Positions 1,971 to 31,819 of a stretch of DNA of 32,000 bases are shown here, piece by piece (the first letter of the stretch is position 1; each line of letters starts with the position of its first letter). The notes beneath the pieces are model-generated. The model did not search any database and was not told the origin of the DNA. It saw nothing but the letters and a program-made list of their open reading frames with translations. The stretch is from NCBI GenBank assembly GCA_004563595.2, contig CP042461.1:30001-62000 (forward strand), written 5' to 3'. The stretch is from Candidatus Saccharimonadota bacterium (lineage in GTDB: Bacteria > Patescibacteriota > Gracilibacteria > BD1-5 > UBA6164). A program made the position numbers and the translations under genes.

Positions 1971-1995
1971 TTAGTTTAACTTTTAAGTAGTATTT

Positions 1996-3650: not shown

Positions 3651-3693
3651 TATAAAATTGTTCAAAATAAATTTAATTATTAATTTTGTGGTT

Positions 3694-4086: not shown

Positions 4087-4161
4087 AACCTAAAAAGAGT
4101 TATGAATGAGAAATTATATGAAAAGTATAATTGATCCAGTTTATATATTAAGTAAAAAAAT

Positions 4162-4701: not shown

Positions 4702-4738
4702 TAAATAGCATATTGAATACAAATTTTTAACTTTTAAA

Positions 4739-5092: not shown

Positions 5093-5111
5093 TTACCTAA
5101 CACTAATAAAC

Positions 5112-5588: not shown

Positions 5589-5633
5589 AAAACACTCCCT
5601 TTCGGGAATATATTAATTAACCAAGATGAGATT

Positions 5634-6089: not shown

Positions 6090-6166
6090 TCATATACCCT
6101 TGCTAAAAACTTGGGTTTTTTGATTTTTTGGGTATATTACCCATATTAATTAATAATTAATCTTTT

Positions 6167-8780: not shown

Positions 8781-8828
8781 GATTATTGCTATTCTCTAGA
8801 ATCGTGCAATAAGTCGTATATAAAACTA

Positions 8829-8857
8829 CCCAAGACCACTTATGGTCGGGGTTTTTT
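8829..8857 (+). terminator. Probable rho-independent terminator of the lipoprotein gene
   Basis: CCC-AA-GACC (8829-8837) pairs with GGTC-GGG (8844-8850), leaving an AA bulge. Loop ACTTAT, then T6 at 8852-8857. Confidence 0.55.
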
Positions 8858-8984
8858 ATTTATAACAATAGTACTCTATAAAAGGGAATACTTTTTTAAG
8901 ATGCGCATCAAGATTAGGTTTCTTTTTAAATCCCTTTAATTATTAGTACCCTTAGGGACTAGTCGTCCTTAAATAAATGAAAAA

Positions 8985-9287
8985 CTATGATTTAAGACAA
9001 TTTATTAAAACTTCTTTAACTTTAGACTTTATTCTAGCTGCTAAGTTTTCATGAAGAGAATACATATTAAGACCACTCAATTGCTCAAGAGCAAGTTGCC
9101 TTGTCTTACATAAATGATCAAGTATAGCCATTTTTTTTCTATCTTCTACTGATAATAACTCTTGATTATTCGGGAGTAGAGCTATATGATTACTACTTTT
9201 AAAATAACTCATAGAATTATTAATTTCTTCTGGGGAAAATTGTTCAGAAGTGGTTGTTTGTACTCATTTTCAAATTCAAAAAGACAT
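8985..9287 (-). CDS. Hypothetical protein (~100 aa)
   Basis: The track ORF 8985-9212(-) extends upstream through three TGA=Gly codons to ATG at 9287 (MSFGIGKGVQTTTSEQFSPEEINNSMSYFKSS...). Lies 25 nt downstream of def on the same strand. Start is uncertain (9212 is possible). No family recognised. Confidence 0.5.
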
Positions 9288-9312
9288 AGTAATAGTTTTA
9301 AAAATAATTTTT

Positions 9313-9780
9313 TTACACTAACTTATCCACAAACAATACACCATTTATATGATCGATTTCATGTTGGACTATCCTTGAGCTGACTCATTCTAAGAGAAGG
9401 ACTCTATCTTTTCCTTTTCAGTCGAGATATTTTAGTTTGATTGTATGGTATCTTTCTACATTCCCTTTCATTCATGGAATAGATAAACACCCCTCTTCTT
9501 CTTTATCCATATTATCCGAATGAGTAAGTATTTCAGGATTTATCATCATGATAGTTTTGAAGTCTTCGTCATCCCGGTCTTTTAATAGACTCACAACGAT
9601 GAGTCGCTTATTTACTCATACTTGTGGAGCAGCAAGTCATACGCCATTATTGTCTGGATTTTTAACGTATTTAATCATCTGATTTCCAAGTTTTTCTATT
9701 TTTTTTATTTCAGATTGTTTTACTTGGTCGGAAACTTTTCTGAGTACTTGATTGTTTGTTCAAGTTTCAATATGTAACAT
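9313..9780 (-). CDS. def: Peptide deformylase
   Basis: Minus-strand translation with TGA=Gly: MLHIETGTNNQVLRKVSDQV...NNGVGLAAPQVGVNKRLIVV...EEGCLSIPGMKGNVERY...SRIVQHEIDHINGVLFVDKLV*. All three PDF motifs are present (G.G.AAPQ, EGCLS, QHE.DH). Length 468 nt, in frame. Confidence 0.9.
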
Positions 9781-9810
9781 AATATTTTTTAATAATAATT
9801 GTTCTCATTA

Positions 9811-9834
9811 TATCTATTTTTAGTCAAATAGATA
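9811..9834. promoter_or_regulatory. Perfect 9-bp inverted repeat in the def/ruvB divergent intergenic region
   Basis: TATCTATTT (9811-9819), 6-nt spacer TTAGTC, AAATAGATA (9826-9834). Located between divergently transcribed def (start 9780) and ruvB (start 9900). Candidate operator; function unknown. Confidence 0.35.
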
Positions 9835-9899
9835 GTTTTTTCTTTACAATTTAGTCTATATCCTTAATATATACATATATAAATTTTAACTCATTTCAT

Positions 9900-10907
9900 G
9901 TGATAGAATCATCAAATATAGAAGCAACAAGAGTTGTCTCTGCAAAGGAGAAAGAGGCTGATAAAGTTATGGGTTGAAATATTTTGAGACCAAAACAATT
10001 ATCTGATTATGTTGGACAGGCAAATATAAAAAAGCATTTAACGGTGTCTATCTCATCTGCAAAAATACGTTGAAACAGTTTAGAACATATATTGTTTTAT
10101 TGACCTCCAGGGCTTTGAAAAACCACTTTGAGTTCTATTATATCCTGAGAAATGTGAACGAACCTGAAATCAACTTCTGGACCTGCAATTGATAAACAAT
10201 CTGACCTGGTGAGTATACTTTCAAATTTAGAAGAGGGGGATATATTATTTATTGATGAAATTCATAGACTCAGACCCCAGGTAGAAGAAATACTTTATAC
10301 AGCTATGGAAGATTTTGAAATAGATATTATTGTATGAAGTGGTACTGGTGCTCAGAGTGTGAAACTCTCTTTGAAACCATTTACTCTTATAGGTGCAACA
10401 ACAAGGCTCTCAGCTCTATCATCCCCACTTAGAGATAGATTTGGGAATGTGTTAAAGCTTGATTTTTATAACAAAGAAGACATATCAATTATTATTCATA
10501 ATAACTGTAAAAAACTTGAATTAAATCTTACAGAAAGTACTATTGAAATAGTAGCAAAAAAATCAAGAGGAACACCGAGGATAGCGAATAGGCTCCTAAA
10601 AATAGTGAGAGATTATAAGACAATTTGAAAAGAAGTTTCAGATACAAAAGTGCTAGAGGAAATATTCCATGATATTTGAATAGATGATCTATGATTGGAT
10701 TACCTTGATAGAAAATACCTTGAAACTATTCAATCAAAATTTCGTTGATGACCTGTAGGGTTGAACACTCTTGCATCAGCTCTTTGAGAAGAAGAATGAA
10801 CTTTGGAAGATGTTGTAGAACCATATCTTCTTCAAATATGATTTATTGAGAGAACATCAAGAGGGAGAAAACTTACAGGATCAGCAATTAATCATTTAAG
10901 TATTTAA
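9900..10907 (+). CDS. ruvB: Holliday junction branch migration DNA helicase RuvB
   Basis: ...[97 protein letters not shown]...[22 protein letters not shown].... Both Walker A Gly codons written as TGA (10101-10103, 10116-10118). Start is GTG 9900 (MIESS...) or ATG 9969. Stop TAA at 10905-10907. Confidence 0.9.
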
Positions 10908-10908
10908 T

Positions 10909-11604
10909 ATGCAAGATAAAAATTACTCTTTATATGATGGATTATTTCATGTAAAAAAAATTATAAAAAAGAGGTTAGAATTTGATCCAAATATTTTTAT
11001 ATTTGTGACTTGATGATCAGCAAGTGGAAAGACATCAAGAGTAGCAAATAATATACAAAAATTTTTTAAAGAAGAATCGATCGTTCTTTCTATGGATAAC
11101 TACTTCAAATGAAAGGAATACTTTCAGAAGCATAATATTACATTTGATGAACCGGAGGCTATTGATATTGATTTACTCGTGAGTCATCTGGAGTTATTAA
11201 AAGATGGAAATATAGTGTATATTCCAGGTTATGATTTTAATAAAGGAGTTTCCATACCAGAGTCTATTAAAGTAGAGCCAAAGCGCATTATTATCATTGA
11301 GTGACTGTTTACTTTGGATGATAGGTTTGAAGAGGTATCAGACTTAAATATCTTTGTTGAGACAGCAGTAAATGGAAGGCTAATCAGGAGAGTTTTAAGA
11401 GATGTAAAAAGAACAAAACAAAAAGTAAATCAGATTGTAGACATCTTTGTAGAAGTTGTCCATCCTATGCATATGAAGCACATAGAGCCTCAAAAGAAAA
11501 ATGCAGATGTGATCATCTTAAATGAATTTATTCCTTATTTAGAGGTAAAAGGTTTAGATATAGAAAAATTTATAAATGAGAATAATATACCTACACTAAG
11601 TTAA
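10909..11604 (+). CDS. udk: Uridine kinase / phosphoribulokinase-family nucleoside kinase
   Basis: MQDKNYSLYDGLF...IFIFVTGGSASGKTSRVANNI...SMDNYFKGKEYF...FDEPEAIDIDLLVSHLELLKDGNIVYIPGYDFNKG...IIIIEGLFTL...D. P-loop GGSASGKT has its first two Gly as TGA (11011-11016). The track fragment 11314-11604 is in the same frame. Confidence 0.7.
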
Positions 11605-11609
11605 AATAT

Positions 11610-12512
11610 ATGAGCATATGGCAAGCAAAAACTTGGGGGGATTTATTAGTTTCCTCAGATCAAGTTGAAAAAATTATTGAAATAGACTGATTACAAGTAG
11701 AGAAAAGAAGTATTTGATTATGACAATATGGCTTGTTTATTTTGTGAATTGAAAAGGATGTTCATGATGATGTTCTTTCTAAAATAGAGGAAGTTTGCAA
11801 AAATGAAAGTTGTATCTTTTTCCAAATTGAAACAGTAAATTATAGATGAAAAATTATTAAAGTTGGATGAAAAAAGTGATATTACAAAAAATTTATTACT
11901 CCATACACAGCTATTATAGATCTAGAAAAATCGGAAGAAGAAATTTTGGCAAATATGAAGCCGAAATGAAGATATAATATAAAGCTTGCAGCGAAGAAAT
12001 GAGTAGAAGTAAAGTCTGTTGAAAAAACACAAGAAAATATAAAAGTTTTTTATAGTTTAATGTTTCAAACAACATCAAGAGATAAATTTAATGGGAATAA
12101 AATAGAGTATTATATAGATTTTCTGAATAAGTTAGATAATTCGCAATTATTAGTAGCCTATGCAGAATGTCAGACTCCAATTGCTGCTGGAATTTTTATT
12201 TTTGCTGCTGAAGTTTCTATTTATTATTATTGAGCATCAACTTCAGATAAAAAATATAGAAATCTGATGGCTCCATATTTATTACAATGGGAAGCGATAC
12301 AAGTTGCAAAAAAATCGGGATCTCAAATATATGATTTCTTATGAGTAGCAAGCCCAGGAGAAAAGAACTCACCTTTGTCTTGAGTGACAGACTTTAAAAA
12401 GAAGCTTACAAAGGATGTCAGAGAGGTTTCCACGAGTTATATTTGGATAAATAAGAGATTTATATATACTATGCTCGATTTATTGAGAAAAATAAAAAAT
12501 TTTATAAAGTAA
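11610..12512 (+). CDS. FemAB-family aminoacyl-tRNA-dependent peptidoglycan peptide-bridge transferase (FemX/MurM-like)
   Basis: MSIWQAKTWGDLLVSSDQVEKI...ILANMKPKGRYNIKLAAKKGVEVKSVEK...FYSLMFQTTSRDKFNG...AAGIFIFAAEVSIYYYGASTSDKKYRNLMAPYLLQWEAIQVAKKSGSQIYDFLGVASPG...SGVTDFKKKLT.... Matches the remembered FemAB-family layout (K.RYNIR.A.K.GV; YYGAS...LLQWEAI; YDF.G). Invisible in the standard-code track. Confidence 0.8.
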
Positions 12513-12522
12513 TTATAGACAA

Positions 12523-13782
12523 GTGTTAGACCTAAAAATAATCAGAGAAAATCCTGATGTTGTAAAAGATAATATCAAAAAAAGAAATCTAAAATTACAT
12601 TTAGATGATTTTTTAAGTCTTGATAAAGAGAAGCTAGGGTTTATCGTAAAGGTTGATGAATTGAGAGCAATCAGAAACAAAGTAAGTAAAGAAATTCCAT
12701 CTCTTCCGAATGAAGAGAAACAAGGAAAAATTATAGAAATGAAACAACTTTGAGAAGATTTGAAAATATTAGAAGAATCTCAAAAAGAAAATCTAGAGAA
12801 ATGGAACGCTTTATATTATCAAATTCCAAATGTATTAGATGATACAGCAGCAATTTGAGATACTGATGAAGATAATGTTCTTGAATCTAAATTTCTAGAA
12901 CCCACTTCATTTGATTTTGAAGCTCAGCCTCACTATGAAATTTGAGAAAAAAAATGATGGATAGATGTTGAAAAAGGATCAGAGGTTTCATGAGCACGTT
13001 TTTGGTATTTAAAGTGAGATTTAGTGTTATTACAATTTGCCTTAATTAATTATGCTATGTCTGTTTTGACGTCAAAATGATTTAATCCTATTCTTCCTCC
13101 AGTGCTTGTAAGAGAAAAAGCAATGTTTGGGACAGGTTTTTTTCCTGCAGGAGAGGATGGTTTATATAGGGTAAACCCTGATGAAGATGATCTTCATTTA
13201 GTAGGGACATCAGAAGTTCCAGTAACGAGTTATCACAGTGATGAGACTTTAGATTTAGATCAGCCAAAGATGTATGCCGCATATAGCTCATGTTTTAGAA
13301 GAGAAGCATGATCTGCATGAAAAGATACGAGAGGTATTCTTAGAGGACATCAATTTGATAAAATTGAAATGGTGACTTTTTGTAAAGCAGATGAATCACA
13401 AAAAATGCATGATTTTATGATAGGAGTAGAAGAAGAAATTTGGCAAGGACTTGAAATTCCTTATCAAAAAGTAAATGTATGTTCATGAGACCTTTGAAAT
13501 CCTGCAATGAAAAAATTTGACCTTGAGGCATGGATGCCAGGGCAAAAAAAATATAGAGAAGTAACCTCTTGTTCAAATGTGTGAGAGTATCAAACAAGAA
13601 GGTTATGAATCAAATACAAAGATGAAAATGGAAAATCTCAATTTGCACACACTCTTAATGGAACTGTTATTGCAATGAGTAGATGTATGATTGCGATTAT
13701 CGAAAATTATCAAACAACAGAAGGAGACGTGAGAGTTCCAGACGTATTAATACCATTTATGGGAGGAAAAAAAGTAATATAA
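12523..13782 (+). CDS. serS: Seryl-tRNA synthetase
   Basis: GTG start; [23 protein letters not shown]...[27 protein letters not shown]...[39 protein letters not shown].... Class II SerS motifs present. Track fragments 12523-12753 and 13102-13311 are in the same frame. Stop TAA at 13780-13782. Confidence 0.9.
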
Positions 13783-14556: not shown

Positions 14557-14597
14557 AAAAAGGAGTTTTTTTCGTAAAATGTTAAAAACTCCTTTTT
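14557..14597 (+). terminator. Rho-independent terminator-like hairpin between the 13807 gene and the giant ORF
   Basis: Perfect 14-bp stem AAAAAGGAGTTTTT (14557-14570) / AAAAACTCCTTTTT (14584-14597), 13-nt loop, T-rich tail. A possible -35 TTTGTA (14552-14557) and -10 TAAAAT (14575-14580), 17 nt apart, overlap the hairpin; this is low confidence. Confidence 0.7.
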
Positions 14598-14625
14598 GTT
14601 TATTTGTTGAACGGAATACTATTTT

Positions 14626-17600
14626 ATGAGCTACTCAAAGATCCAAAAATTTTTATCAAGTCTTGTGCTTTTTAGTATCCTTTTTTCTATCACTGTTAGA
14701 GTACCTTTTTATAACTTTAGTGCTTTTGCTGGAAGTTCAGATTTTTATGATATAGTCTCAGTAATTGTTGAAGAGGAGATATATGATGATATAAAAATGG
14801 AAGTTAATAGATATGCAGCAGATATAGAGGGAGTATTAGATAATACAAAAGTAATTATTCTTCCTACTCCAAAAGATACTGACGTTTTTAATATTGCATC
14901 TGTAAATGAGGCTTTATATTTCGAGTGATATAAATGAGTAGAGAAAACGAACTTTGAATCAAAATTAGTTTGAACAGTGATTGTCGGAGATATAGGATTG
15001 CCCGTTGTATATGATGGTAATAATTCTTCAAAAACTATTCTTCCATTTGTTGATTTTGAAGATAAAGCATATATCTATAATCATTCAACGAAAAAATACG
15101 AAAAAAACTCAGGGAATGCAAATGGTTTACAAGCTGAAATATGGCATGGCCTCATTTCTCCAAATTTTTGAGATGACAAAAAAAATCTATCGTGACTCAA
15201 GGATTACTTCGATAAGAATCATGATTATTATGAATGAACAGGAAATTTTGACTGAGCAAATGGTCTTATAAATTGAAATATATGAGAAGGGAATCCCGTA
15301 GGATATGATCCAAATGTATTTTACTTTGATGCATTTAGGGAGTCAAAAGCCCTTAATTATAATAGTTTTGTTGGTTATAAATGATATCTAGAAAATAAAG
15401 AAGATATTGTCTACAATAGATTTAGTAATAGCTTAGCAGAAAAACTAAAAGACCAAGTTTTATGAAACTCAAACGATCAAATATGAGATTTACTTCAATC
15501 TGTTGCTCCTGATTTAGATGCGGGCTCACTTTCTCAATGACCAGACCTATCAAATACACCAGATATTCAATCAAGGCATGTGACTCAAAAAATAGCAAAG
15601 AAATTTATTGAAATTTTTGCGGGAGGAGCTTTGTGAGACTTTAGAAAAAATGTCCATAATGCATGACGTTATAATTGAATATGAGCAGAGGTAAATATGG
15701 ATATGATTCCATATTTTGTTACGGTACTCGATTCTGTAAATGATGAAGTTATAAAAGATGTTACCAGTGAGCTGGAAAATAAAATTGATGATTTGGTGAA
15801 AACTGAATTACAAGAAGATATATATGTTCCAACTATTTTAGAAGAATCAAATGCATATATTGATAGGTATAGAACATCAAATAATGGAAGTAGTAGGGAT
15901 GAGAATCTTTCGTATATAGACTATCAAACAAATATTCTGTACTGAATCCAGGCATCAAATATAACTGATGCGCTTCAATGTAGTATTTATAGAGGAGCTA
16001 CATATAACTGATGAACCCTTGTTGAAGCAAATAGGTGATTAAATATATCTCTTGTTACAGGTGATGTGGCACTCTTGGAAAATGAATCTATCAGTTGTCT
16101 ACAGGCTATTGAATCATGAGATTCGCTCAATTGATATTGGGGAAAAAATACCTGATTAAATTTAGATAGTGCAGCAGCTTGAACTTCAGGTTTACAATTA
16201 AAAGAGCATGATTTGAATGGTTCTATTCAACCTCTTTTTGACCTCGTTGGTTCAAGAGCAGTAGATAATACGGATAATAACCCATCGTACCTTGATTGTT
16301 TTGATAATAACTTCTTTGTTTCACGTGAGTATACTTTGAGTGGTGATAACACAAGTAGCAGACAAGATAGATTTACTACACTTACCTATGGATTACCAAT
16401 ATCCGGTAACTCGGCTGTAAATTGGAGCTGTAAAACAGTATCAAAGAAGTATGACTATACAAGGAAATATAATGATTTAAATGCAGAATGAAAATGTAGC
16501 GATGAAATATGTGTTGATTGAAAAAATAAAATATTTTTTAAAAAAATACCATCTTATATAGAACATAAATCCCCAACTGTAGATGAATTAAAAATTGAAA
16601 TCGAGAGTGGTATTACTCCGTCACTTCCAATTGATAGAGATAGATATATTGATTTTCAATGAAAAGGGGGGAATTATAAAAAAATAAATTACCCATATTT
16701 ATTCAGATTAACAGTTGAAGAAGGAGATGAACTCAGTACTAAAAATATTGAAAAAGCATTGACTAAATACCTTGATTCTAAAAAGAGTGAATTATGAGAT
16801 TTTGATCTGGTGAATTTTTTAAAATCTAAAGAAGACCAGTCAATAAACATCTGATGAGAAACAAAAACATTGAGTTATTACGATACATTGATTTTTGCGA
16901 TTTATTGGAATAATTTAAATACAGTCTCTTCAAAGTATAAATTTGTTTTTGAAAATTATCTTTCAGATCAACTTTGATCAGATGATGATAATTTTTATTT
17001 AGCAAAAAATAAAAAACAATATGAACTTGCGTATATTTGAGCTCCATGAGATGCACAAAATATGTATGTAAAGTTAGATCCAGAAGAAAAAGCAGAGAAT
17101 CCATATAGCGAAGTATTGAGTAAAAACAGCACTTTATCTACCCAGTTGCTTGGCTCAAATATTTGAATTTCAGAAAACCTAGGGAATGAATGAGTATTTC
17201 AATGTGCTCCACCTGAATGAGTTCCTATTTTTGAATGGGTGCCAGCTCTTGTATGTTGGATTTGAAACATGCTTCCTCCAACGATTTCTATATCTGATTG
17301 AGTGTGTGGACCCAGTTTATTGTCAGCTGATGAAAGACAAGAAATATTTGAGTGTTCTGGAGATGTAAATAAAAATGGTATTAATGATTGTATTGAAAAT
17401 AAATTACAATGAGGAAGTTTAGAACTAAAAACATCTTCAGATAAATACTACTATAACAAATCATGATCCCTCACTTCTCAGATCAAAGATAAAAACTGAA
17501 AAGTAGTCAAATTAGATAGTGCCAGTGAAGTTCATTTCGAACTCGTAAAACTAGAAATAAAAAAAGATAAAAATAAAGAACTCACTTCATCAAACACAGA

Positions 17601-20600
17601 AGTTATCTATGATACACAAAATAAAAATAATTTTGATCTTACAAAAGAATACATTTATTTTAAAAATGGAAAAGCAAAAGTAGCTTTATGAGAAGTAAAT
17701 TATGCTTTTGTTTCAAAAAATGAAGACGTGAATGCTTATTTTAAAGCTTCTGTTGAAACTTATGATAACCAAGAAAAGAAGGAAATATTTTTAGAGTCAG
17801 AGGAAATACAGATTTCAGTAAGAGGTGAAAGGCTCTTTACTTCAAGTTATAAAGTAGAGCAAGATAACTGATGAGTACATATAAATGTTTGAGAAAACTC
17901 TGTAAAAGTGAGTGATAAAATAAATATCTTTCTTGTCGATAAAGATAAACAAGATGTGAATGACATTTCAAAAAAAATTAGTTTTTCTTCAGTGTCATCA
18001 GAAAAAATGATACTTTCTTTAGAAAATATTTCTGATCTAGGAAAAACAACTCCTATTTCTTACCCAATAGCATTACAAATATCTCGAGATGGAGTGACTC
18101 TAGATACTTTCACTGTTCATGAGTCTGAAATGTGAGAGTTTAAGAATTTAGCTTCATTAGAAAAATCTTGAACCTATACTTTTGAGATACAAGATAATGA
18201 TTGATTTATATCAACACAAGATATAAATTTGATAGCAGAAGAACCAAGCGATCTACAAATACAGCTATGATCTACTCTTATTGAGGCAGGTTGAAATATT
18301 ACTACAAATATAATAAGTATATTAGATAAGTTCTGAAACCCTGTTATATGAGAGTTTTTAGACTTAGATATTGATATAGATGGTGCTTGATTGCTCTTTG
18401 AAGAAAATGAAAAAGATAATATATCATTACAAGTTTTAGAGTGATATAAAGTTTTTAGGCTACAGTCAACAGGTTCAGAATGAACAAATACTATCAAAGT
18501 AAATGTATGAGATGGATTTGGAAAAACACTTGCGAGTGCTCAGTCTGAAATCCAAGTATTAGATAAGATACAAACAGTTTTAAAACCTTTAGATTCAAAT
18601 ATTAGAGTAGGTGGGAACAGCTACAAATATGAGCTGAGTTTAAGGGACTCTAGGTGAAAAATTCTTTCAAATTTTAATTCAAGAGTGTATCTTGGAATAC
18701 AAAAAAACTATGGTTCAGCGATATCTCCATACGTTGAAATAAAAGGTGGAAGAGCTGAATTAGAATTTAAAACAGCAACTATAGCATGAGAAGTACCATT
18801 TGAGTTTCAAATAGAATGATTATGAAGAATTATTACAAAAAATATAACTATTCTTCCGGATGCAGCAATTAAAATTGATATGTCACTATCAAAGTCAAAA
18901 ATTGAGGCTTCAAAAGATGAATTTTCTCTTTTGAAAGTGGAACTAAAAGATAGATACTGAAATATTGTTCGTACTGATAACACTACAAACACAAAATTAG
19001 AGATTTTAGATCAATACAAAAACATTATTAGTTGAGATATATTATCTCAAACAGTACAAGCATGAGTATCTACATATAAGATTTTTTGAACAGAAAATCC
19101 ATGAACAGCCTATTTCAAAATTTCTACAAACCCATGACTTGAAAATAACGGCTTTGTTATAAGTGATGGTGCCTGAGAAATTACAGTGCAGTGAGTTTGA
19201 GAAAATATGGGAAAAATAGAGACATTCTATTTCTGGAATGCTCAAAGAATACAAGATACTAGATATAATGCGTTATATACTACTTTGTTGGGTGCTCCAT
19301 ATTGAGATGTGACTCAAGAAGATTACCTTGCATGAAGTCTATTGTTTCAAAAAGACAATAGGTCCCTTGCTGTTAGTTCATTATTAAATAGCCCATATTG
19401 ATATAGTGATATTATTGATATTAACCCTGAAGGATGAATAAAATTTGTTTATAATGATTCAGATGTTACTCAAGATATTGAATCAAGCATATGATTTGAT
19501 GAGAATAATTTGTTTATTAACCTATTCAATGCCTCATTATCTACATATTTATGAAAAGTTTATTTTAATTTTCCAAGTGATACAAACTTACAAGTTTGTG
19601 AAGGAACAAGCTTGTCTATTTGTGAAATAAGTTCAGAAAAAACAAGTATTTCTCTTCAGAGTAACGCCCAGGATTATTCTGCATATTTAGATTGAGATCT
19701 TTTAATACTACAGGACAAGTTTTGAAAAAAAATATTAGATATCGATTCAAGTGGACATATTAATAAATATTGAATTGTTGATTTTGTCTTGAGGAGTACA
19801 AATAATGGAAAATATCTTGATCTTGATATTCTATCATGAGATACAAATATAGGTTCTCTATGATTTCATTTTGTTGATGCAAATATAAATGTCTCAAGAG
19901 ATCAAAATAAATTTGAGAATAAAATTAAAAACCTTAAAAATAGTATATTAGTTTTATTATCTACGAATTCATACCAAACAAGAGATTCTTATAATTGAGA
20001 TCAATCAAGCAAAATCATCTATTACAATGATCCATTTTCTACAAAATATAGTTTAAATAACTTTACTAAAAACAATTCATTTTGATACGAAAACTTTGCA
20101 AAAAAATGATGACTATGATGGTCAGAAGAAAATAAAACTTTGCTGAACTTTGCAGCATGAAAGAGCGTTTGAGAATCTATAAAAGATTACTCAAGTTTTT
20201 CAGTTGTAAACTTATGAGACCCCGTACTTCAACTAAAAAAATCACCAAAAAAATTACCAAAAACTATAAAGGATAGGAAGTTTGATAGGACAATATGAAA
20301 CCAACTTACCTGAGATAAAGATATTCTTTCATATCAAGTATTTGATTATAATGCAGATGAAATTGATGACATTTTATTAATCAAAAATAATAATTACTTC
20401 AAGCTTTTAGAAAATACTCTCAATGATCAGAAATTTTTAGATACCTGAAATCTTGCTTATATATCTGATCTTGGAAATAAGGATTTAGTAAAAACTTGAG
20501 ATTTCACATGAGATAATTATGAAGATATCTTCTTTGTTAATAAAAATGGAGATCCCTTCTTATTAAATAATCAGGAAAAAGATTTTGTTCGAATTTCATT

Positions 20601-23600
20601 GAAAGATCAGTTTCAGTTAGAATGAAAGATTATTAGAGTGGAGAAATTTGATATGGATAATGATAAAATAACAGACCTTGTTATTTTAGATGACTCATGA
20701 GAGATCCATATATTTTATTGAACTTTAGGTTCTTGAAATCCAGAATTTAAAAAACTCCTTGTATCCGATTCTTATTGAATTAAATTAAGCTCTGAGATCA
20801 GAAGTGATAATGGTTTTATCTATTTTGATGGATTATCATCAGTTGAAAGTTCAGATGATTATAATGCAGACTTATTAAAAGATAATGAAGAATACCTTCG
20901 TGAATTACAAAAGAATATTAATTCTAATAGTCTTCCTCAAAATACGTCTAGTCAAGAGATAAATGAATGACTTGTGGATAAACTTATTTATGTGACTGCA
21001 TCATACTGAACATCAGATCAAGAAGACATCAGTACAGAGAGTGTCCTTTGAAATATAAATCTGACATCATCAGCTGAAACGAGTGATTCACTTGCTCTTA
21101 CAAATACTACCCTCAGTAATTTTATTAATTCAAATGATAGCTATGTAAGTCTTCCTGCTAGGCTTCCAATTACAAAACAAACATCGTTTATAAAAAGTGA
21201 TTATTCATCACTTGTCTGATTAGATGTGGAGAAGAAGTTTATAGATAGAAATGAAGGATTCTTAAAGTCTGATGATGTTGTGGATGTGGAGATCGTTTTA
21301 AAAAATACTTCAAATCAAATTGCAAACAATGTTGTATATTTAGAAAAACTAGATCAAATTTTTACTTTGAATACAGAAACTATTCGTGTATCTTCGGATG
21401 CAAATATAGCTTTTTGAGTCCCTTGATATGATTTTGTAATTGATAATTTTTCACTTGTTCCGGGTTGAACGATTACTATAAATTATGAAACAAAAACAAA
21501 AGCTTTGAAATACGGATATCTGAAAGTATGACTATTTGAAAAGGGTGAATTATGAGATGATTTTTATGGTGATATTATTATAAAAAAGAATAATCAAAAC
21601 TGTTCTCAGCCACAAACAATTTTAAAATCGCAAACCAAAAGAACATATACACAATGAGTAAAAGAAGTTTCATGTGATGAAAATAAAAATGCTCTTCCAG
21701 ATGAGATAGAAAAGAATACAGAAGATTCTGACAATAATGGTATACCAGATTATATAGATAATTTAACGGATCCAAACAACATTGACGCTCAAGCTGAGTA
21801 TGCAAAGAATGCACTTGCAGATGTAAACAAATGAGCAGTATCAGAATTTGATGATAGTCCGAATATTGTATGAGACTTATCAGAAATGAATGCAAATATA
21901 GATGAAACTCTGGACAAAGTTGATAATATACTCCAAGGATTTAGTTGTGGTTTTTGATGATGAGGGTGTATAGCAACACCTTTGAACTGGGCTCCACTAG
22001 CACCAGGTTGAGATCCAACATTATTTTGAGTTCCAGTATGAGACGGTTTACAAGTAGGAGAATGACTCCCGATTTTTTCAGCACTTACATGGTTCTGAAT
22101 ATGACCACTCTGTTTACCAATTGCAGTATGGCCTCCAAGTCCATTGTGACCAGGATGTTGAGCAACTCTATGAGCATGAGGGTATTTATGAACTATGAAT
22201 CCAACAAATTTTTTCAGACTGTTTATAACACCAACATTAACTTGATGAATGTGAACGGCAATGTGTTTTGGAGCTCCACCAATGCTTGCTTGATATGCAA
22301 ATATGCCATGACTGAGTCCTCTTTTACCTGGATGAAACTGTATTGTAACAGCTGCACCCCTAGGAACATGTAGTGACGATGGATCAGATTGATATGTTGC
22401 ATGAATTTGAGAATCAGATATTACAACAGGAAGCTTTGGATTAATCAACTGAAATTGTTCTCCTCAAGTATCAAAAAGCCAAACACTTGATTCGGAATTT
22501 GTACAAGATTATTTACAGTACAAAACAACAGGCTATAAATCAGATACGTTATTTGATAGATATAAAGAGTCTTTTACAAAAATTTCTGAAAATACAAATG
22601 GGAGAGGATGATTTTCTTCTGAACCCTTGTTAAGTATAAATTGAGAATGAAATGGAGACCAAGTTGATATAGCTATTGACTTTTCAGCAGGACAAGATTG
22701 AGACTTTTCTGATGTTTTACAAATACAGCAAACAAGAATTTCCCCTTTTCCAGATTTCTTGATGTGATGGGTAACGAGGCAAATTGAAGAGATTGTCACA
22801 AAATTAACAGATTTCCCAACTGTGTTTGTTATTCTTCCAGATTTACAATGAGTATTAGATTCAGGAATATTAGATGGGTGAGATAATAAAGCTGAAAATA
22901 GAGAGGATGCATTTGTTGTTAATAAAAATATAGCAAATATTACATGAACTGGTTGAATAAATACAGTAAATTCTTGAATAAAAGAAGCATATAATTATAT
23001 GTCTAATATTCCTCTGATTCAAATTGAACAAGAAGTTATTAATATAAGTGTTCCTTATCCAGAAGAGGAAAGTATAAATAGGACTCTGAAGTCTTGGGGG
23101 AATACAGTAGATAACTGGACAGATGAATTAGAAAGAGCAAAGTGAGCATGGACTTTATGAGCTTTCTGTAGCTGAACATGAGCAGAAAAATCAAGATGTG
23201 AACAAGAAAATGCTATCTGAGAAAAAATTCTTATCGATACTCAAGGTTTAATATCTTCTTTGGAAAGAAATATAGACGTACTGAATGATTATAAAACTTT
23301 CCCAGAAAAACTTGGAGAATTAGTAAATAAAAAACAAGATTATTTAGAACAAATTTTATGTAATGTTGAATCTATTTCATGAATTTTAGGTGGCCGGATT
23401 TGAAAAAATGGAAAAAGATTTAAAGCATGGGTTGAAGCATACGTACTTATAAAAGCAATTTTAAAATCTTGGCAAGTATTGATAGATGTTTTTATTGATT
23501 ATGAGGCAGAATGTCACGAATGTAAAAATGAGAGAGGTGACCTGATGACTTATATATGGAAACTCATTAGTGTAATTATTCCAAAAATACCAGTTATTCA

Positions 23601-26600
23601 ATTTCCTAAATGGCCAGACGTTATTATTGATTTACATAATATCCGTGCATCATTAAGTATTACCCTCCCAGAGTTTCAGTTTACAACCAGGCCAATATTA
23701 TTACCGACACTTCCTGATTTAATTTTACCAGATGTTCCAACGGTGAATATTACTCTTCCAGAGCTTCCCGTGCTCCCAACTTTGGAAATACCTGAGCTTC
23801 CGGATCTCCCAACTCTTCCAACGGTTGAGCTTCCAAACTTACCACCAGCACCTACTCTTCCAAAAATGTTTGCTTCTTTAGAATGAGTATTAGATATTCT
23901 CAAGTTAGTCACAAAAGCAATGTGTATTTTGAAAACAAGCCCATTTGTTCCAGAGTGGAGAGCTTGAGATCAAATCGCATTTTTGACAGAAAGGCAATGA
24001 TATCTCCCAACAGATTTTATAGATATTAATCTTCCTCAATTTTCATTTCCATTTGTTGATGCGATAAAAATTACCAGCTATGTAAATTTAGAATTTGAAA
24101 CAGATTTTATATTAGAACTGGCAAGGCAAGTTGCTATGCCTATTAATTGAGTTTGAAACAATTTCACACAGATGCTTGATATTGAGGTTTCAGATTTGGA
24201 TTTTTCAATTCTTCCATCAAGTGTTGATATAAATATCTGAAGTGAAGGAATAGAGGGAGATATTTCTCAAAATTCACAAAATAAAAAAGCTGCAATATTT
24301 GCAACTCTTGTTGTAAAGTGAATATGAGAACTATATTCATATCTTGAAACAAATAAAAATGAAACAGTTTCTAATGATGAGTTTAAACAATTGATTTTTA
24401 CAGCTTTATCATCAAAGAGTATAAGTTCAAATCCAAAGTTGGATAATTTGAGATCAGTATGGAAAGAAGTTGAAAGCATGACATATTCAAAAGAAGATAA
24501 GATCATTGAAGCACTTGAGAAAAATAACTTTAAAAAATTTGAATTATTAAAAGAAATACTCTCAACTGAAATACAAAAAACGAAAGAACAGGAGAAAAAC
24601 CTTCAAAAATTTATTGAGCCATCTTATATTACTCAAGTAGCATTTGAGCAATCAAGTGATGTAAAATATTACAATGAGAAGCTCAGAAAATATAATGAAA
24701 AATTTATCACTGCGGCAACGTCTCTTCAAGATGGAAATGGAAATGAACAGAGAAAAGAGTTGAAGCAAGAATGAGATAGGCTTCTCTCAAATATAAAGAC
24801 ACCACTCAGTCAATATGCGGAGTGATTTAATAATAATTCATTGTCAGCAGTAACGAGCACCGTACCAACAACAAGTTCTTCTACAAATAGTTGTAGTGCT
24901 CAGTCACAATCTGCATATCATTATAATTATAAAGGATTGTATGTTCTTGAGGATAATATCAGTTATAGACTCTTTGATTATTTGGATGAATTAGATGGAA
25001 ACGAAGTAAATACACTTATAGATTTTGATAATGATTCTGATGATGATCTTATCTATATGACAAATGGTCAGATTTTTATAAAAGAAAATTTAAATAATTC
25101 TCCAATAAAAAGAAAAACTTTATGATGACCTATAGTTATTGAGAGTGACGATAATAAATTTTATGATACAACTCTGAGTGAAGAACCAATCTTTTATGAA
25201 TCTGTAAATAACTTTGAGGAAGTATCAGTAGATAATAGCTCAATTAACATGAGATTTTCAAAAGCTGCTTATAACCACGGGAAAAACTATAGAGTGGAAT
25301 TTTATGATATCACTGATAAGTTTCTTCATATTTGAGATGATAGCTATTTTCCAAAAAAGAAAAAAAAGTATCTTATAGATGCATTTGCTAATAGAGATGA
25401 AATTACATATGTAAAAGAGAATGAGACCTATAAGACGAGTAAGAATTTAGCATATATAAAGAATATTTGAATCCTAAAAGGGATAAAATTACAGACAAAG
25501 AATTTAATTAATATCAAAGATAGCTTAGAGGAAGGAAAAATAGTGAATATATCTCCTCTTACGAAACTATATGCGTGAAGGTCTTCATTTGTACTAAAAT
25601 ATTTAGAAGAATGATCTCAAGAGCTTCAATGACTCGTAGTAGCAAAACATCAAAATATTGAGATGAAACAAGCTATTAAAGTAATATGAATTACTTGAGA
25701 TGCATATATAAAAGGAACAACAGATATATTTTTAGAATGAGAAGAAATAAGATGATATTTACATAAACCTCTTTTTGCTTGAACGTGAATAAAACATGAT
25801 TCATCTATTCATTTATCAGAGAAACCATATGTTGATATCATGTACTATGATGATACAGAAGTTTGATTAGACTTTAATGAAATAAATGATTATAAAATAT
25901 ATGACTTATGATCAAGTAATCAAGATTACTTGATCAACGTTTCAAGAGAGAATGACTACTATTACTCTAAGATAAGAACTTTTAAAGAATGAGTTTTTGG
26001 AACCTATTCAAAGCCAATACTTCTTTCTCCACAAAAAGAAGCGGATTCAAGCTCCCCAGAACTTTCTCTGTGAACTGTAATAAGAGTGCCTGTATATCAA
26101 AAAAAGATAATTGATATTACAGAAAATATATATGAGGATTCATGAATAAGAAATATAAATGAAGTACGTATCGACATGGACTTGAGTGTTGATAGTGATT
26201 GAGATGGGAATCCAAAAAATGATGCAGATAATATGACAAGCGATACAATAAATGTGGCACAAAGTCTTACAAGTATACAGATTGAATTCGGTGCATTTGA
26301 GACATTATTTAAAAGAAATATTTGAATTACTCTTGTAGATAATAATAACAATGCTTCATATACTGAAGCTCCGTTAGAAGTATATGCTCCTAATCCTGAG
26401 ATACAGTTATACAATAATAATATCATACAATGAAGCTTGGATGAAGAGCTTACAAATGAACCGGTTCATTTGTATAGATATAGATGATGAACTATTTCAA
26501 AACTTGAAAATATAGATGGTGAGGATATTTCATTAACGAATAATGGGATATACGATTTTGATATGAACATTGATTCAAAAAATTTACTTCTTACTCAGAA

Positions 26601-27111
26601 TGATCTAATTATCGCTGAAATAGATGAAAATACCTGAAAAATAGATATCAAAAATCCTCTTTCTCAAATAGAAGTACTTTCATCTAATGATATAAATAAT
26701 GATTCGGCGTATCCAAAAATGACCCTTCAGAAAGGTTGAGAAGATGTATATTATCAATATTTACAATTCTCTTCAGACACGAGTATACAAGTTGTGAGTA
26801 ACTTTGATGATTTAGATAATGAATGAATGTATGTACAATTTACGAATGGTACAGATTTTAATTATTATCAGATCCCTGAATGATCAGTGTACGCTCCATG
26901 ATCTCTGAGTATCTATAGAATAACAAATCCAAATAAAGATCCGTTATTTACTTTCTTCAAAGATGGTAGAATAAATACATGGAATGAATTCTATAGACTA
27001 GAATATTCTACATACGGGGACTATATAGTATTGAAGCTCATAGATAAAAACTTTAATAAAGAAGTTGCAAAGGTATTATTTAAAGTAGATTGAGAGTATG
27101 TAATGAAATAA
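14626..27111 (+). CDS. Giant secreted/cell-surface protein, 4161 aa (putative adhesin or host-interaction protein)
   Basis: With TGA=Gly, one uninterrupted frame runs from ATG 14626 to TAA 27109-27111, with no in-frame TAA/TAG in my manual read. Nine supplied ORF fragments are all in this frame (starts 14626, 14977, 15697, 16213, 17908, 21226, 23479, 24391, 24841). N-terminal hydrophobic signal/anchor MSYSKIQKFLSSLVLFSILFSITV. Internal Ig-like repeats, FG-GAP-like and Ca-binding motifs, a hydrophobic G/P/W/C module and an LP repeat. Terminator immediately downstream. Confidence 0.8.
23761..23859 (+). repeat. Three imperfect in-frame 33-nt tandem repeats (11-aa Leu-Pro units) inside the giant ORF
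   Basis: Units 23761-23793, 23794-23826 and 23827-23859 each begin GAGCTTCC. They encode ELPVLPTLEIP / ELPDLPTLPTV / ELPNLPPAPTL. Units 1 and 2 share 21/33 nt by my alignment. Degenerate LP-rich sequence extends upstream to about 23640. Confidence 0.8.
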
Positions 27112-27746: not shown

Positions 27747-30392
27747 TTATTTCAATACTTCTTTAAAATCAACTGTATTAGTGGGAGTATCGATTTCTAC
27801 TTTTTTATAATCTATAGTAGAGGTATTATCCATTTCAAACTTGATGATATTTGCATCGTTGACGTTGATATTAAAATAGATATTTTCATTATCTTTATTT
27901 CACCTTTGATCAACATCAATATTTAGGTTTCAAGTCACTTCAGTGACTGTATTATTTATTTCTTTTTGTTCCCAAGTTGAATAAGTATTTATATAAAACT
28001 TTTCATTAAAGTTTCATTGTATATCAATTCACCTTTCATATCTTTTATTATCTGATCATCAATCTTTCATAGCTTTTCCCACTATATTTGAATTTGCTTC
28101 AAAACAAGTAGAGAGTTTATATTTTTGATTTTTAATGCCATTTTTATCACTTCATACTTCATAAATATATCAAAACTTACATCCATTGATTTCAATGGCT
28201 CCTGAAGGATCTTTCGGAGTATTAGATAAGAACATAGAGGTGTTTTTATGAAAATTTTCTTTTGTTGGGTATTCACCATTATCTTGGTACGACTGTTCTA
28301 TAGCCGAAATAAGATGTAATACATCTGTTACTCTTACGGAGTCTCTTGCTTTTTCTATTTGAGTATTTTTGTCAAATATTGATGCAACTTTTGGATCAAT
28401 ACTAAAATTATTATTTAATATTAAGTAATCTTTTTCATATGATCAGTCAGTAGATATAGAGATGAAATCTTCTCACTTAGGAGTTTTTAAAACTGTAGTT
28501 CATGTAATTATTGTATTTTTTAGAGTCAGAGACGAATGAGCTGTTTCATATTCTTTTCCTGTCAGTTCATATTTATAAGTATCATAGTTATACTCTTTTT
28601 CTTTTGCAAATGATTTGAAATCAAGATCTAGGTCACTAAAATTTTTATTTGTAGTATGCCATACTCATTGAAGAGAAATATCTGATTTATAGTATTTTCC
28701 ATTATAATGATTTATAAAACTTATTTTTGGTTTTGAAAAATCAAATGAACCATCCAGATATTCAGTATTTGTTTTTAGGTCTGTTCAATCATAATTAATC
28801 ACTAGGTTTTGTAATTCATTTGAAGAATTTGTAGCTCATGATATGTTTCCAGAAACTTTTTTTGATGGAACATATGATCACTTCCTTGTATCATAATTAT
28901 ATTTATACTCTTTGTTGCTGTATTCAAAGTCTCATAAAATCTTTTTATTTTTTAAGTTCAGTGTTGTTTTTAATTCATTTTTTGAGCTTGAGATATTTCA
29001 CTTGTATTCGATCATTGTGAATTTATTATTTGAAAGAGTGGAAGTAAATATTATATCTGCTTCTCCTTTATTTGCATAAAAATCTATGTTCAGATGAGAA
29101 TTCTTTTTATAATCGAGTGTAAAGTTTTCATTTGGATATCTTGCTTGATCAGGAGAAATATTGATTGATGCTTCTTTGATATCAGAATCAGAGAATATGA
29201 TAAATCATTCAATATTATCAATTCATGTCTTTGTAATTCACTCAAAACCAAGTTTTGAGTATGTTCATAACTCTATATACATACTTCACGTTTTTGCGAA
29301 CTCTCTTAACATGTTGTTGTATTGTGAATCACTACATGTTCTTCCATTAAATGGATCAAATTTATTTGCAAGTTCTTTGAGGCTATCACATGCATATCTT
29401 GTAGGAGTCAGATAATATTTATCACCATCTTTTTTATATGCTTGAAACATAGGCTGAGATAAAATTTCTTTTCCATCAGCAAGAACTTTGTGAGGAGCCA
29501 GGCTTCTTAATATTTTCATTGCTTGTTCAGAATTTTTATCATTATATTTGATGTATTTATTCTCTTTTGCAATTTCTTCAAGCTTATCTAAAGTATCTTT
29601 AAAATTATCAATATTTTCTTCAGAAATTATATCAAGATCTTTTATTAATACATACATATTTCCATCTTTTGAAATGAAATCTAGAAAGTTTTTAAATTCT
29701 AACTTTATTGCGTCCTGTCATTTCGGCGCAGCATCTAATAATGCTGAGATATGTCATTCTACTTGAGAATCAAAATTCGATGCTTTTACTATGTAATCAT
29801 CAAGTTTAAATTCAGCTTTTATTGTTCAAATTTTTTCTTGGTCTATATCTAGATTCATTCTTAAATCACCTTTTGCTTCGTAGTTTGATAATTCTTCAAA
29901 ATCTTTTATCAGTTTTTCTAAGCCTTTTGTTCCTTTATTAAGAAGGTTTAGTTGAATTTTTACCAGTTTGTCATTTACTTTTTCTTGTTCACTTCTCGAT
30001 AGAGTAGATGTTTCAAATTCCTTTAATATAAGTTCAGTTGTATCATATTGTAATAGTGCAAGCTTAACTTTTGATGCAAGGTAGTTTACTATCTTGAGTG
30101 TTTTTTTTGCTTTGAGAGAATTATTTCATGATAGTTTTCATTGAGCGAGAGAAAGTCTCTTTGACAACTTTTGTAATTTTTTCTCACTTTTGCTGAGAGT
30201 AGCAATTACTGTATCTATACTTTTTATATATTTCTCTCCACGAGATATACTTTTTAAAGCAGTTCTTGATATATCCACTTTATTAATGAGAATAGTTTCT
30301 TCTAAAGAAGTCTCTGCATAGGCAAAAGAACCACTTTGAAAAATAAAAGCTATTAACAATAATGAAGTGAAACACTCCTTAATAATCTTCAT
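27747..30392 (-). CDS. Secreted protein, 881 aa, with a type IV pilin-like globular domain embedded near the C-terminus
   Basis: Minus-strand frame is open from ATG 30392 (alternative ATG 30422) to TAA at 27747-27749 with TGA=Gly. Track fragments 30138-30422(-) and 29286-29657(-) are in this frame. Signal peptide MKIIKECFTSLLLIAFIFQSGSFAYA/ETS. The N-terminal part is Lys/Glu/Leu-rich and helix-like. Residues encoded around 28080-28360 read ARDSVRVTDVLHLISAIEQSYQDNGEYP...SNTPKDPSGA...GCKFGYIYEV...YKLSTCFEANS...DGGSDNKRYERG. Confidence 0.8.
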
Positions 30393-30457
30393 AAAATAAG
30401 AGTTTAAAAAATAATAACCCATCTATTTTATTTTTTGTTGACCATTAATCAAATAAA

Positions 30458-31810
30458 TTATTTAGTTAATGAGTAATGCTTTCAAATATATGCTCATATT
30501 ATTAAAAACAGTAAATAACTTGTTGCTGCTTCTTCAAATGCGTGAGTGAAATTTGCCATGAAACATAAGCTCAAAAAAGCAGTGAGGAGTCATATAGAAA
30601 AATAGGTGGTTGTTTTTTGCATAATTTTATACAAAGCTATACTAATGAATATGAGTAAGCCAAGAAAGAAAAAGAGTCATAAAAAAGATTGTTCTAAAAG
30701 TATCTGTACATACCAGTTTTCGGGCAAGTACTTATATACTTCTATAGAGTTTATTGAACTCTTCCATCATACATCAGTTTCAAGTGGACCAATTTGAGTT
30801 GCAGGACCACTTGTTCATACTCCACTTCCAATGGGGTTATATAAAAACTTTTTTACAGCAAGAGCAAGATTATCAAATCTATTTATGAGAGATCATAAAT
30901 GAAGAAAAAGGCCTCTTTTTATAAACATAATGATAGTTGCAGAAACTGCTATGAGTATAGGAACTATTTTAAGCACCTTTTTTTGCTTGCTCGTGAGCTT
31001 TCACTTAAATATGAATTTATTCAGAAAGTAAAAGAATATAAATGCTCATATCATTAATCCCAACATAGATGTTTTTGAATATGAGAAAAAGACTGATGTG
31101 ACAACAAATAATGAAGGAATGGATATAAAGATACTTCTATATATATGATTTTTTACGGTATCTAATATATATCAAATATATAAAAAGAGGAATACAATAA
31201 GGAATACGGAAAACCTTATTGGTCAACCAAAAGAAGCTTGAAATCTATGATGTCATGAAACATTTTGAGAAAAACTAATACAAGAATTTGCATTATAGGT
31301 AGATACTTTATCTGAGTATCCAAAAAAATCTGAAACAAGAGCTATGTCTCCAAAAATATACCATGGAAGAAAAATAATTAAAATGAGTCATGTTGATGCA
31401 AATACACTTTTTAAAATGGTATCAATTGAATTTCTGATGCTGATAAGAGAAAAACCTGCAATGAGGGTAAAAATAAAAAATACATCATATTTAAACCCCA
31501 GAAGGTTATTTATCCCAACAGAAAAGAATGGAAAAAATATATAGAGGAGTGACGAAAATATAAACGCAACAGAGAATCATAATATATAGTTCCCTTGAAA
31601 TATCTTTCATATTTTAAAATGGTACCTTTTTAAAATACTATATGTTCAAATGAAAAGTAAAAAAATAACTATAAACTCTTTCCAGAATCTAATAATATCA
31701 GTATTGGCTCATAATTTACACTTTAAAATTGTAACAAATAATGCATGGAGGGGTAAAAAGAATGCAAAAAGTATGAGTAAAAGCTTCATAGGAATGTTTC
31801 AGAGTTTCAT
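30458..31810 (-). CDS. O-antigen ligase-like (Wzy_C family) polytopic membrane protein
   Basis: Minus-strand frame with TGA=Gly: MKLGNIPMKLLLILFAFFLPLHALFVTILK...SYSKTSMLGLMIGAFIFFYF...LYNPIGSGVGTSGPATQ...PENWYVQILLEQSFLGLFFFLGLLIFISIAL...*. Many hydrophobic segments, arranged as I remember for O-antigen ligase/polymerase-like proteins. Length 1353 nt, in frame. Alternative start ATG 31789. Confidence 0.75.
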
Positions 31811-31819
31811 AAATTATAG

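Follow-up and report, generated by a model that had tools for sequence, protein, structure and literature searches.

A conserved Gly/Pro/Cys-rich module, probably disulfide-braced, within a giant secreted protein of Gracilibacteria

The window analysed here is a whole stretch of 32,000 nucleotides of contig CP042461.1 (positions 30,001 to 62,000; assembly GCA_004563595.2), from a bacterium of the Gracilibacteria lineage BD1-5. An open reading frame (ORF) at 14578-27111 on its forward strand, with a first ATG at 14626, encodes a giant protein of 4,161 amino acids (aa). The frame is open only if TGA is read as a sense codon, and under the standard code this region falls apart into short ORFs. 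Our subject is a module in the interior of that protein, first noticed in a reading of the sequence alone (the sequence-only reading) as a UGA-dense hydrophobic segment at 21934-22470 (aa 2437-2615), for which a membrane-inserting function or a membrane anchor had been proposed. The placement of the segment inside a giant protein was right: it is in frame with the 4,161-codon gene, and the code 25 translation of 21934-22470 agrees with the peptide given in that reading letter for letter. The features of the gene are as follows.

14626-27111, forward strand: giant gene, 4,161 aa under code 25, with 192 in-frame TGA (Gly) codons.
14626-14730, forward strand: N-terminal hydrophobic signal peptide or signal anchor, MSYSKIQKFLSSLVLFSILFSITV...SAFA followed by G; Kyte-Doolittle hydropathy at least 1.6 at aa 6-31.
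18871-19122, forward strand: immunoglobulin (Ig)-like region (Invasin_D3 / Big_1-like), with weak Pfam matches in the window protein.
20500-20685, forward strand: FG-GAP / VCBS-type integrin-like repeats; FG-GAP_3 scores 24 bits in the window, the cut-off being 26.9 bits.
21724-21759, forward strand: DSDNNGIPDYID, a D-x-D-x-[DN]-G-x-P-D motif just upstream of the module, seen in the sequence and conserved in the homolog alignment.
21789-22448, reverse strand: spurious antisense ORF of 219 aa in the standard code; the same frame is open across the module in few orthologs.
21874-21939, forward strand: predicted amphipathic helix leading straight into the module (AlphaFold2 on proxy P0001, residues 8-39).
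21937-22458, forward strand: the module, aa 2438-2611, Gly/Pro/Cys-rich and almost uncharged, with six invariant core Cys.
21945-22373, forward strand: spurious off-frame ORF of 142 aa in the standard code, overlapping the sense frame that is conserved in more than 100 genomes.
21946-21969, forward strand: C1-GFGGGG-C2 loop (family consensus CGFGGG[SG]C), which holds the triple TGA; both Cys are invariant.
21979-22008, forward strand: PLNWAPLAPG, the family signature motif (consensus P[LI]NWAPLAPG), with invariant N, W, A, P, L, A, P and G.
22090-22170, forward strand: variable sub-region with the hydrophobic peak of the window protein, WFGIGPLCLPIAVWPP; 0, 2 or 4 Cys in orthologs.
22207-22272, forward strand: NFFRLFITPTLTGGMGTAMCFG, conserved and predicted to form a beta-hairpin, in which one Arg and one Cys are invariant (P0001 strands 132-138 and 144-150).
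22327-22392, forward strand: PGGNCIVTAAPLGTC, a predicted strand, followed by the acidic motif SDDGSDG; C171 and C181 are invariant.
22738-22842, forward strand: conserved block ISPFPDF(L/I)MxWVTRQ..., with which the downstream core begins; in aa 2701-2750, conservation is 90% or higher at 12 positions.
23266-24165, forward strand: downstream conserved core, aa 2881-3180, predicted to contain very long helices together with beta-hairpins; its Pro-rich LPxLP stretch is at 23701-23865.

Comparison with orthologs supported the earlier claim that TGA is a sense codon here and identified its meaning as Gly. In ten orthologs that barely use TGA, the alignment columns at which the window has TGA were 46% Gly, nearly the same as the columns at which it has GGN (47% Gly). 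Trp was not among the top residues at these TGA columns, while TGG columns were 70% Trp. Within the module, Gly stood at 70% of TGA columns, and the triple TGA of the window appears in homologs as GGN-GGN-GGN inside the motif CGFGGGSC. Translations of family members with table 4, which are found in public databases, contain 5-8% Trp and about 1% Gly. Because the TGA columns match Gly, homologs use GGN at the same places, and the table 4 compositions are absurd, the alignments identify the genetic code of the window as code 25, in which UGA encodes Gly. A tRNA scan of the 32-kb window found no tRNA gene, and an Rfam scan of the window gave no match.

The density of UGA codons, which had drawn attention to this segment, is explained by amino acid composition. 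There are 24 TGAs among its 179 codons, including TGA TGA TGA at 21955-21963, in agreement with the earlier count of roughly two dozen with three in a row. This amounts to 0.134 TGA per codon in the module versus 0.042 in the remaining gene (binomial p=6e-7). The share of Gly codons that are TGA, however, is the same in both: 24/38 (63%) in the module and 167/273 (61%) elsewhere (Fisher p=0.86). It is Gly itself that is enriched (odds ratio 3.7, p=1.4e-9), the module being 21% Gly and 12% Pro. The guanine plus cytosine (GC) content is indeed raised, as had been observed (0.388 at 22001-22500 versus about 0.29 for the AT-rich window), but the increase is at codon position 2 (0.60 in the module versus 0.32 in the remaining gene) and not at position 3 (0.156 versus 0.181), and therefore reflects the amino acid composition, that is, codons for Gly, Pro, Ala, Cys and Thr. 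For Gly the genome prefers TGA, which makes up about half of the Gly codons in the housekeeping genes upstream. The TGA fraction of Gly codons varies with local GC across 82 loci (Spearman -0.92), with extremes of 2/275 and 275/325 in the same protein. Since the TGA share of Gly codons is equal in the module and elsewhere, the UGA density is a by-product of composition, without biological significance of its own. The two standard-code ORFs that the sequence-only reading had listed as spurious, one antisense and one off-frame, are both present and both spurious. An antisense gene across the module was considered and rejected: of 80 orthologs, no more than 11% under code 11, or 26% under code 25, have this frame open.

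A scan of 185,579 species genomes with the signature motif PLNWAPLAPG as search pattern returned 105 species genomes, all labelled Gracilibacteria, 'Peribacteria' or Patescibacteria, and the gene was nearly always single-copy. Where the contig permits, the gene is 3,940-4,550 codons long and the module lies about 2,300-2,850 residues in. From end to end, the window protein aligns colinearly with more than 55 orthologs of 3,940-4,550 aa and with a 4,217-aa ortholog (L002) that has only 11 TGAs and comes from a 55%-GC genome. Identity to that ortholog is 32% overall versus 50-58% over the module. Among 55 full-length orthologs, 42 positions of aa 2451-2600 are at least 90% conserved, a number exceeded only by aa 2901-3150, with 77. 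These alignments place the module among the two regions of highest conservation in a giant protein that is single-copy and of fixed length. In an alignment of 41 module sequences 34 columns are invariant, and conservation is position-specific in genomes that span 21% to 55% GC. Invariance falls on Gly, Pro and Cys, together with a conserved Arg, Asp and Glu, and the invariant columns include G-x-x-C-G-F, C...P-x-N-W-A-P-L-A-P-G, A-G-G, R...P-T-x-T...G...C and P...G-x-C...C.

When the segment was used as query by itself, 22 homologs came up, each of them a short fragment, as TGA interrupts the gene calls in public databases; one of these lies in the 55%-GC genome of L002. Exhaustive HMMER searching of 1.84 billion representative proteins yielded 190 matches. 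The long matches are without exception proteins of 3,000-5,140 aa in which the module occupies an equivalent position, at about residue 1,060-3,230 and mostly at 2,000-3,200, and the same search found no module outside such giant proteins. Divergent matches keep C...C...P-x-P-[FI]-N-x-A-[FP]-L-x-P-G, F-R-x-Y-x-x-P-T-L-T-x-x-x-G-x-A-x-C-x-G and G-N-C-x-V, and even the most distant relatives keep the NFFRLFITPTLTGGMGTAMCFG hairpin. Relatives of the module were also sought on viral contigs, and none were found. The suggestion that the segment defines a conserved module among giant proteins from the Candidate Phyla Radiation (CPR) was thus confirmed by profile search and ortholog alignments.

The module is undescribed, having neither a family model nor a fold match. 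Pfam and NCBIfam scans gave no match on it, whether with the module as query (E up to 1) or with the whole protein and two orthologs, and a profile search of PDB sequences returned only chance antibody matches (E >= 0.014). Foldseek searches of PDB with both of the structure models described below, and of the viral structures in BFVD with the module model, found no significant match (best E for the module 2.2 and 1.1). In the literature we found no paper describing the module; giant or VCBS proteins are mentioned only generically. That the segment could not be assigned to a known domain, as the sequence-only reading had stated, therefore stands after Pfam, NCBIfam, PDB and fold searches. GenBank labels family members 'VCBS repeat-containing protein' or 'hypothetical protein', and public databases hold the family mostly as fragments (code 11 calls that break at TGA) or as table 4 mistranslations (P0097-P0131 and others). 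The domain is therefore hidden, by fragmentation and by Trp-laden entries, from routine homology searches and structure-prediction pipelines.

The giant protein has the order signal peptide, Ig-like domains, FG-GAP/VCBS repeats, short amphipathic helix, module, long-helix and Pro-rich core, and C-terminal beta-rich domains. The N-terminal hydrophobic segment recurs in nearly all orthologs; its cleavage site, between SAFA and G, was placed by eye and is putative. Ig-like Invasin/Big-type domains lie at about aa 1,200-1,550, and FG-GAP/VCBS repeats at about aa 1,900-2,030 are followed by a weak DUF11-like stretch, the module and an unannotated core. The weak matches in the window protein have counterparts in relatives. 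FG-GAP_3 scores above its cut-off in L013 (49.7 bits), L073 (39.4 bits) and P0230 (36.5 bits), and Ig-like families match L013 and L073 below threshold at the equivalent position, while P0230 has Glyco_hydro2_C5 at 53.9 bits. A DSDGDG-like motif is also found C-terminal of the module in the window protein, L013 and L034, so that the window protein has D-x-D-x-[DN]-G motifs, putatively of the kind that binds calcium outside the cell, on either side of the module. The downstream core had no Pfam match and no fold match and was found in the giant-protein family only. The Pro codons of its LPxLP stretch account for another peak of GC, at 23501-24000, where GC skew is negative, and for a standard-code ORF free of TGA at 23404-23886. 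A further stretch far upstream, 17197-17316 (aa 858-897, FQCAPPEGVPIFEWVPALVCWIGNMLPP...CGPS), is Cys/Pro/Trp-rich and hydrophobic in a style like that of the module, and has 12 positions at least 90% conserved across orthologs; it might pack against the module.

Structure was predicted with AlphaFold2 on two proxies, P0001 for the whole module (48% identical) and P0044 for the downstream core. In the P0001 model a 32-residue helix runs into CGFGGGSC and is followed by short beta-strands, not helices, each only about 7 residues long; the predicted local distance difference test (pLDDT) is 80-92 in the core and 62 overall. The helix before the module has a 3-4, heptad-like spacing of hydrophobic residues, with at least 70% I, L, V, M or F at positions -23, -16, -13, -9, -6/-5 and -2 from the first Cys. 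The P0044 model (pLDDT 57 overall) consists mainly of very long helices, the longest named being of 115 residues and reaching pLDDT 92, besides beta-hairpins and the Pro-rich LPxLP stretch. The module itself includes two stretches of more than 50 residues each without any charged residue, and His is absent from the module of the window protein. Several independent lines thus lead us to infer a compact extracytoplasmic domain of short beta-strands and many Gly/Pro turns.

The pattern of Cys residues points in the same direction. The number of Cys in the module is even, at 6, 8 or 10, in 78 of 81 distinct orthologs, and the three with an odd number are missing the last core Cys. In orthologs that keep all six core Cys, the variable sub-region has 12 distinct Cys arrangements, all of them even. 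The even count in the module is not trivial, since the rest of the same proteins is even only at chance (25/55 for the N-terminal and 24/55 for the C-terminal remainders). Parity in these remainders was also tried as a topology test and was uninformative. Gain and loss of Cys in pairs argues for disulfides, and therefore for a folded extracytoplasmic domain, probably held by three invariant disulfides plus 0-2 lineage-specific ones, as far as the alignments indicate. We consider the module almost certainly extracytoplasmic and disulfide-braced.

The interpretation we favour as a whole, with a probability of about 60%, is that the module is a disulfide-braced extracellular domain of a secreted giant protein, a rigid hydrophobic contact knob on a helical stalk. 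Together with the flanking helices it would be the invariant mechanical and functional core of a giant surface protein, in which a rigid, nearly uncharged, aromatic-studded knob would make a contact conserved across all Gracilibacteria, and the variable Ig and FG-GAP parts would supply reach and specificity. The extreme conservation of the module, against the variability of the Ig/FG-GAP region, argues for a constant partner, which could be another subunit, a component of the envelope, or any hydrophobic surface of a generic kind, for example a lipid bilayer. Several points weigh against this interpretation. Even Cys counts are not phylogenetically independent observations, and paired metal ligands would fit them too. 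The models are of low confidence (pLDDT 62 and 57; predicted template modelling score 0.42 and 0.36), were made on proxies 48-54% identical to the window protein from shallow, fragmentary alignments, and give the most conserved motif (CGFGGGSC...NWAPLAPG) a pLDDT below 50. The crude additive scale used below to assess membrane insertion has little discriminating power for the window protein taken by itself and is no more than supportive, in that it gives the true N-terminal signal about +3 kcal/mol and the module of the window +3.3. The topology argument from S-layer homology (SLH) domains, also given below, comes from distant relatives, and no SLH match was found in the window-type Gracilibacteria proteins.

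The sequence-only reading had allowed for a membrane anchor separating two exposed halves of the protein, and it was correct that no other stretch in the interior is strongly hydrophobic: aa 2481-2501 hold the only Kyte-Doolittle 19-residue windows of at least 1.6 past the N-terminal signal. This peak, with its maximum of 1.81 at aa 2483-2501, and the lack of any other recognisable cell-anchoring domain in window-type orthologs, would suit a transmembrane anchor, a helical hairpin or a re-entrant segment in the cell's own membrane. The peak sits in the variable sub-region of the module, however, where homologs have Arg, Gln and Ser; among 57 orthologs the median of the 19-residue maximum is 1.41, 19% reach 1.6 and none reach 1.9. 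Insertion free energies (dG) summed over 19-residue windows with the additive Hessa scale, which penalises Pro and Gly, are in no ortholog below +2.9 kcal/mol (median +4.6), and none are at or below +1, so that no ortholog has an insertion-competent window. What is conserved is instead Gly, Pro and Cys, many of these positions being invariant; the most hydrophobic conserved hairpin contains the invariant Arg, the predicted structure is of strands, and even Cys counts imply three to five disulfides. Distant relatives have cell-wall-binding SLH domains (88 and 31 bits) on the C-terminal side, some 1,400 residues from the module, while their FG-GAP/Ig domains are on its N-terminal side. Extracellular-type domains on both flanks place both halves outside, and therefore exclude a single-pass anchor. 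The data do not support the module as a transmembrane segment, and an anchor in any of these forms is very unlikely. The opposite extreme, that there is no functional unit here but a low-complexity Gly/Pro linker, or that the antisense or off-frame ORF is the real product, could appeal to the biased composition and to the length of the alternative standard-code ORFs. It is refuted by conservation and has a negligible probability, given 34 invariant columns of mixed residue types in genomes of such different GC content, TGA and GGN codons that swap synonymously at the same columns, and an antisense frame open in so few orthologs.

Two further alternatives concern the role of the module. In one, disulfide-braced, Gly-rich aromatic loops (CGFGGGSC, NWAPLAPG), acting like viral class II fusion loops or the insertion hairpins of beta-pore-forming toxins, would enter the membrane of a prey or host cell from the tip of the stalk, for attachment or to open a conduit. 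Such insertion is possible, though on the unlikely side. It would make sense of a nearly uncharged module with two long uncharged stretches, of invariant Trp and Phe beside Gly-rich, disulfide-closed loops, and of the long helices on the flanks. The low model confidence of the most conserved loop, often seen with exposed functional loops, fits as well, and conservation across lineages with presumably different hosts fits a generic target such as lipid. Cultured relatives, moreover, are epibiotic predators with giant surface proteins (PMC8080830). The predicted strands of about 7 residues are, however, too short for a bilayer, the invariant Arg lies in the most hydrophobic conserved hairpin, and no viral or PDB fold similarity was found (best E above 1), though the model queried was weak. 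A more specific proposal is that all Gracilibacteria share a device for attacking the host or feeding on it, of which the module would be the tip, a fusion-loop-like knob entering the host cell's membrane so as to dock the epibiont or form a conduit. This is rather doubtful; if it were true, the module would represent a new, non-viral class of membrane-penetrating module. The other alternative is a glycan- or peptidoglycan-binding domain, with an aromatic platform for wall polymers of either the host or the bacterium's own cell, or a purely structural oligomerisation domain at the subunit interface of a fibre. A beta-rich, disulfide-stabilised extracellular domain with invariant Trp and Phe could serve either purpose, the heptad-like helix before it is compatible with a coiled-coil multimer, and extreme conservation fits self-interaction. 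We nevertheless regard this as quite unlikely, about on a par with the fusion-loop-like reading, as no carbohydrate- or wall-binding family matched in Pfam, NCBIfam or PDB, and the module has very few of the polar or charged residues that are usual in sugar-binding sites.

Two other identities for the module were considered and rejected. The spacing of about 130 residues from the first Cys to the junction between GGN and C suggested a Hint or intein domain, but there is no His in the module of the window, the Asn before Cys is Gln or Lys in distant relatives, and there was no Pfam match to Hint or intein families. An internal lipobox at 'G[LF]SC' has the wrong residues at -3 and -1 and does not lie at the end of a signal peptide.

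The genes around the giant gene give no conserved partner: no neighbour family was found in more than 21 of 77 loci, and synteny is at the level of clades only. The immediate neighbours had no Pfam match. Two reverse-strand genes, 27747-30422 (891 aa) and 30458-31813 (450 aa), point towards the giant gene, with synteny to it kept in 18 and 21 of the 77 loci, respectively. Judged by eye, the product of 891 aa starts with a signal peptide and contains, close to the C-terminus, a sequence (ARDSVRVTDVLHLISAIEQSYQDNGEYP) like that with which the globular part begins in CPR type IV pilins, and the 450-aa protein is polytopic and O-antigen ligase-like. Upstream, 372-7435 and 9855-13782 include, again by eye, a ribosomal-protein operon (uS3 ... 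uL15), SecY (6161-7435) and RuvB (9855-10907), along with a uridine-kinase-like gene, a FemAB-like gene and seryl-tRNA synthetase (12508-13782). With these housekeeping genes upstream, the giant gene is embedded in the core genome and not in an island. A gap of about 1 kb at 8781-9854 holds only overlapping low-quality ORFs, 9308-9823 (forward) and 9313-9807 (reverse), and no Rfam family or tRNA.

The loci of two distant relatives were also inspected. The genes at L083 (2697-15249) and L084 (6001-17991), which encode P0229 and P0230, have no in-frame TGA and encode SLH domains, and of 15 gene calls checked there, 14 have TAA or TAG as their stop codon. Both of these divergent members adjoin type IV pilus genes (T2SSE ATPase, N_methyl pilin). 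The L083 gene is split by an apparent frameshift into 1,118 and 3,082 aa.

Gracilibacteria are uncultured, recoded and host-dependent, and the largest gene of these organisms encodes a fixed-length, single-copy protein rather than a fast-evolving repeat adhesin. The module and the long-helix core are a testable candidate for the conserved part of the machinery with which they contact the host, and could merit an entry as a new domain family.

Among known systems, the nearest in overall design are the giant FG-GAP/VCBS integrin-like surface proteins, which are likewise secreted, exceed 4,000 aa, carry FG-GAP_3 repeats (above the cut-off in orthologs, borderline in the window copy) and Ig-like Invasin/Big-type domains, and share the GenBank naming. 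The protein described here differs in its Gly/Pro/Cys module and long-helix core, which occur in no described family of VCBS/FG-GAP adhesins. Typical repeat adhesins, moreover, vary in length and repeat number, whereas this protein is of fixed length and single-copy.

Three other comparisons were made, of which those with fusion loops and hydrophobins are analogies only. The fusion loop of the flavivirus E protein has the sequence DRGWGNGCGLFGKG, and class II viral fusion loops are, like the loops of the module, short Gly-rich segments with Trp or Phe, disulfide-braced and extracellular, with elongated flanks; no sequence or fold homology to class II fusion proteins was found, using a module-only query model of pLDDT 62. 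Fungal hydrophobins and other small, hydrophobic surface proteins with disulfide knots would resemble the module in having eight Cys in four disulfides, low charge, and exposed hydrophobicity that is kept soluble by this bracing. Hydrophobins are free proteins of about 100 aa, however, and their sequence and Cys spacing are unrelated to those of the module, which is a domain within a 4,000-aa protein. The translocation regions of large clostridial toxins and Tc toxins, which the pore-forming suggestion of the sequence-only reading implies as a model, are highly hydrophobic helical hairpins without conserved Cys; they too are a single hydrophobic region inside a very large secreted protein, but the hydrophobicity of the module is modest and unconserved, and it is Gly, Pro and Cys that are conserved. 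The analysis as a whole does not demonstrate a new kind of system.

A biological parallel is found in a sister lineage that also uses code 25. The longest protein of the predatory Absconditabacterium Vampirococcus lugosii, VAMP_16_20, is annotated as a 'hypothetical protein' of 4,163 aa, nearly the same length as the window protein, and the giant proteins of this organism were inferred to be at the cell surface, with DUF11, integrin and fibronectin domains reported and a role in host attachment proposed (PMC8080830). The comparison is by length and description only, and the paper on these giants gives no description of the module (PMC8080830). A metaproteogenomic study has reported unspecified 'VCBS repeat' proteins of Gracilibacteria in the proteome, a lead for expression and not proof of it (PMC11452946). 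The giant protein of the window is probably the Gracilibacteria counterpart of the giant surface proteins of Vampirococcus.

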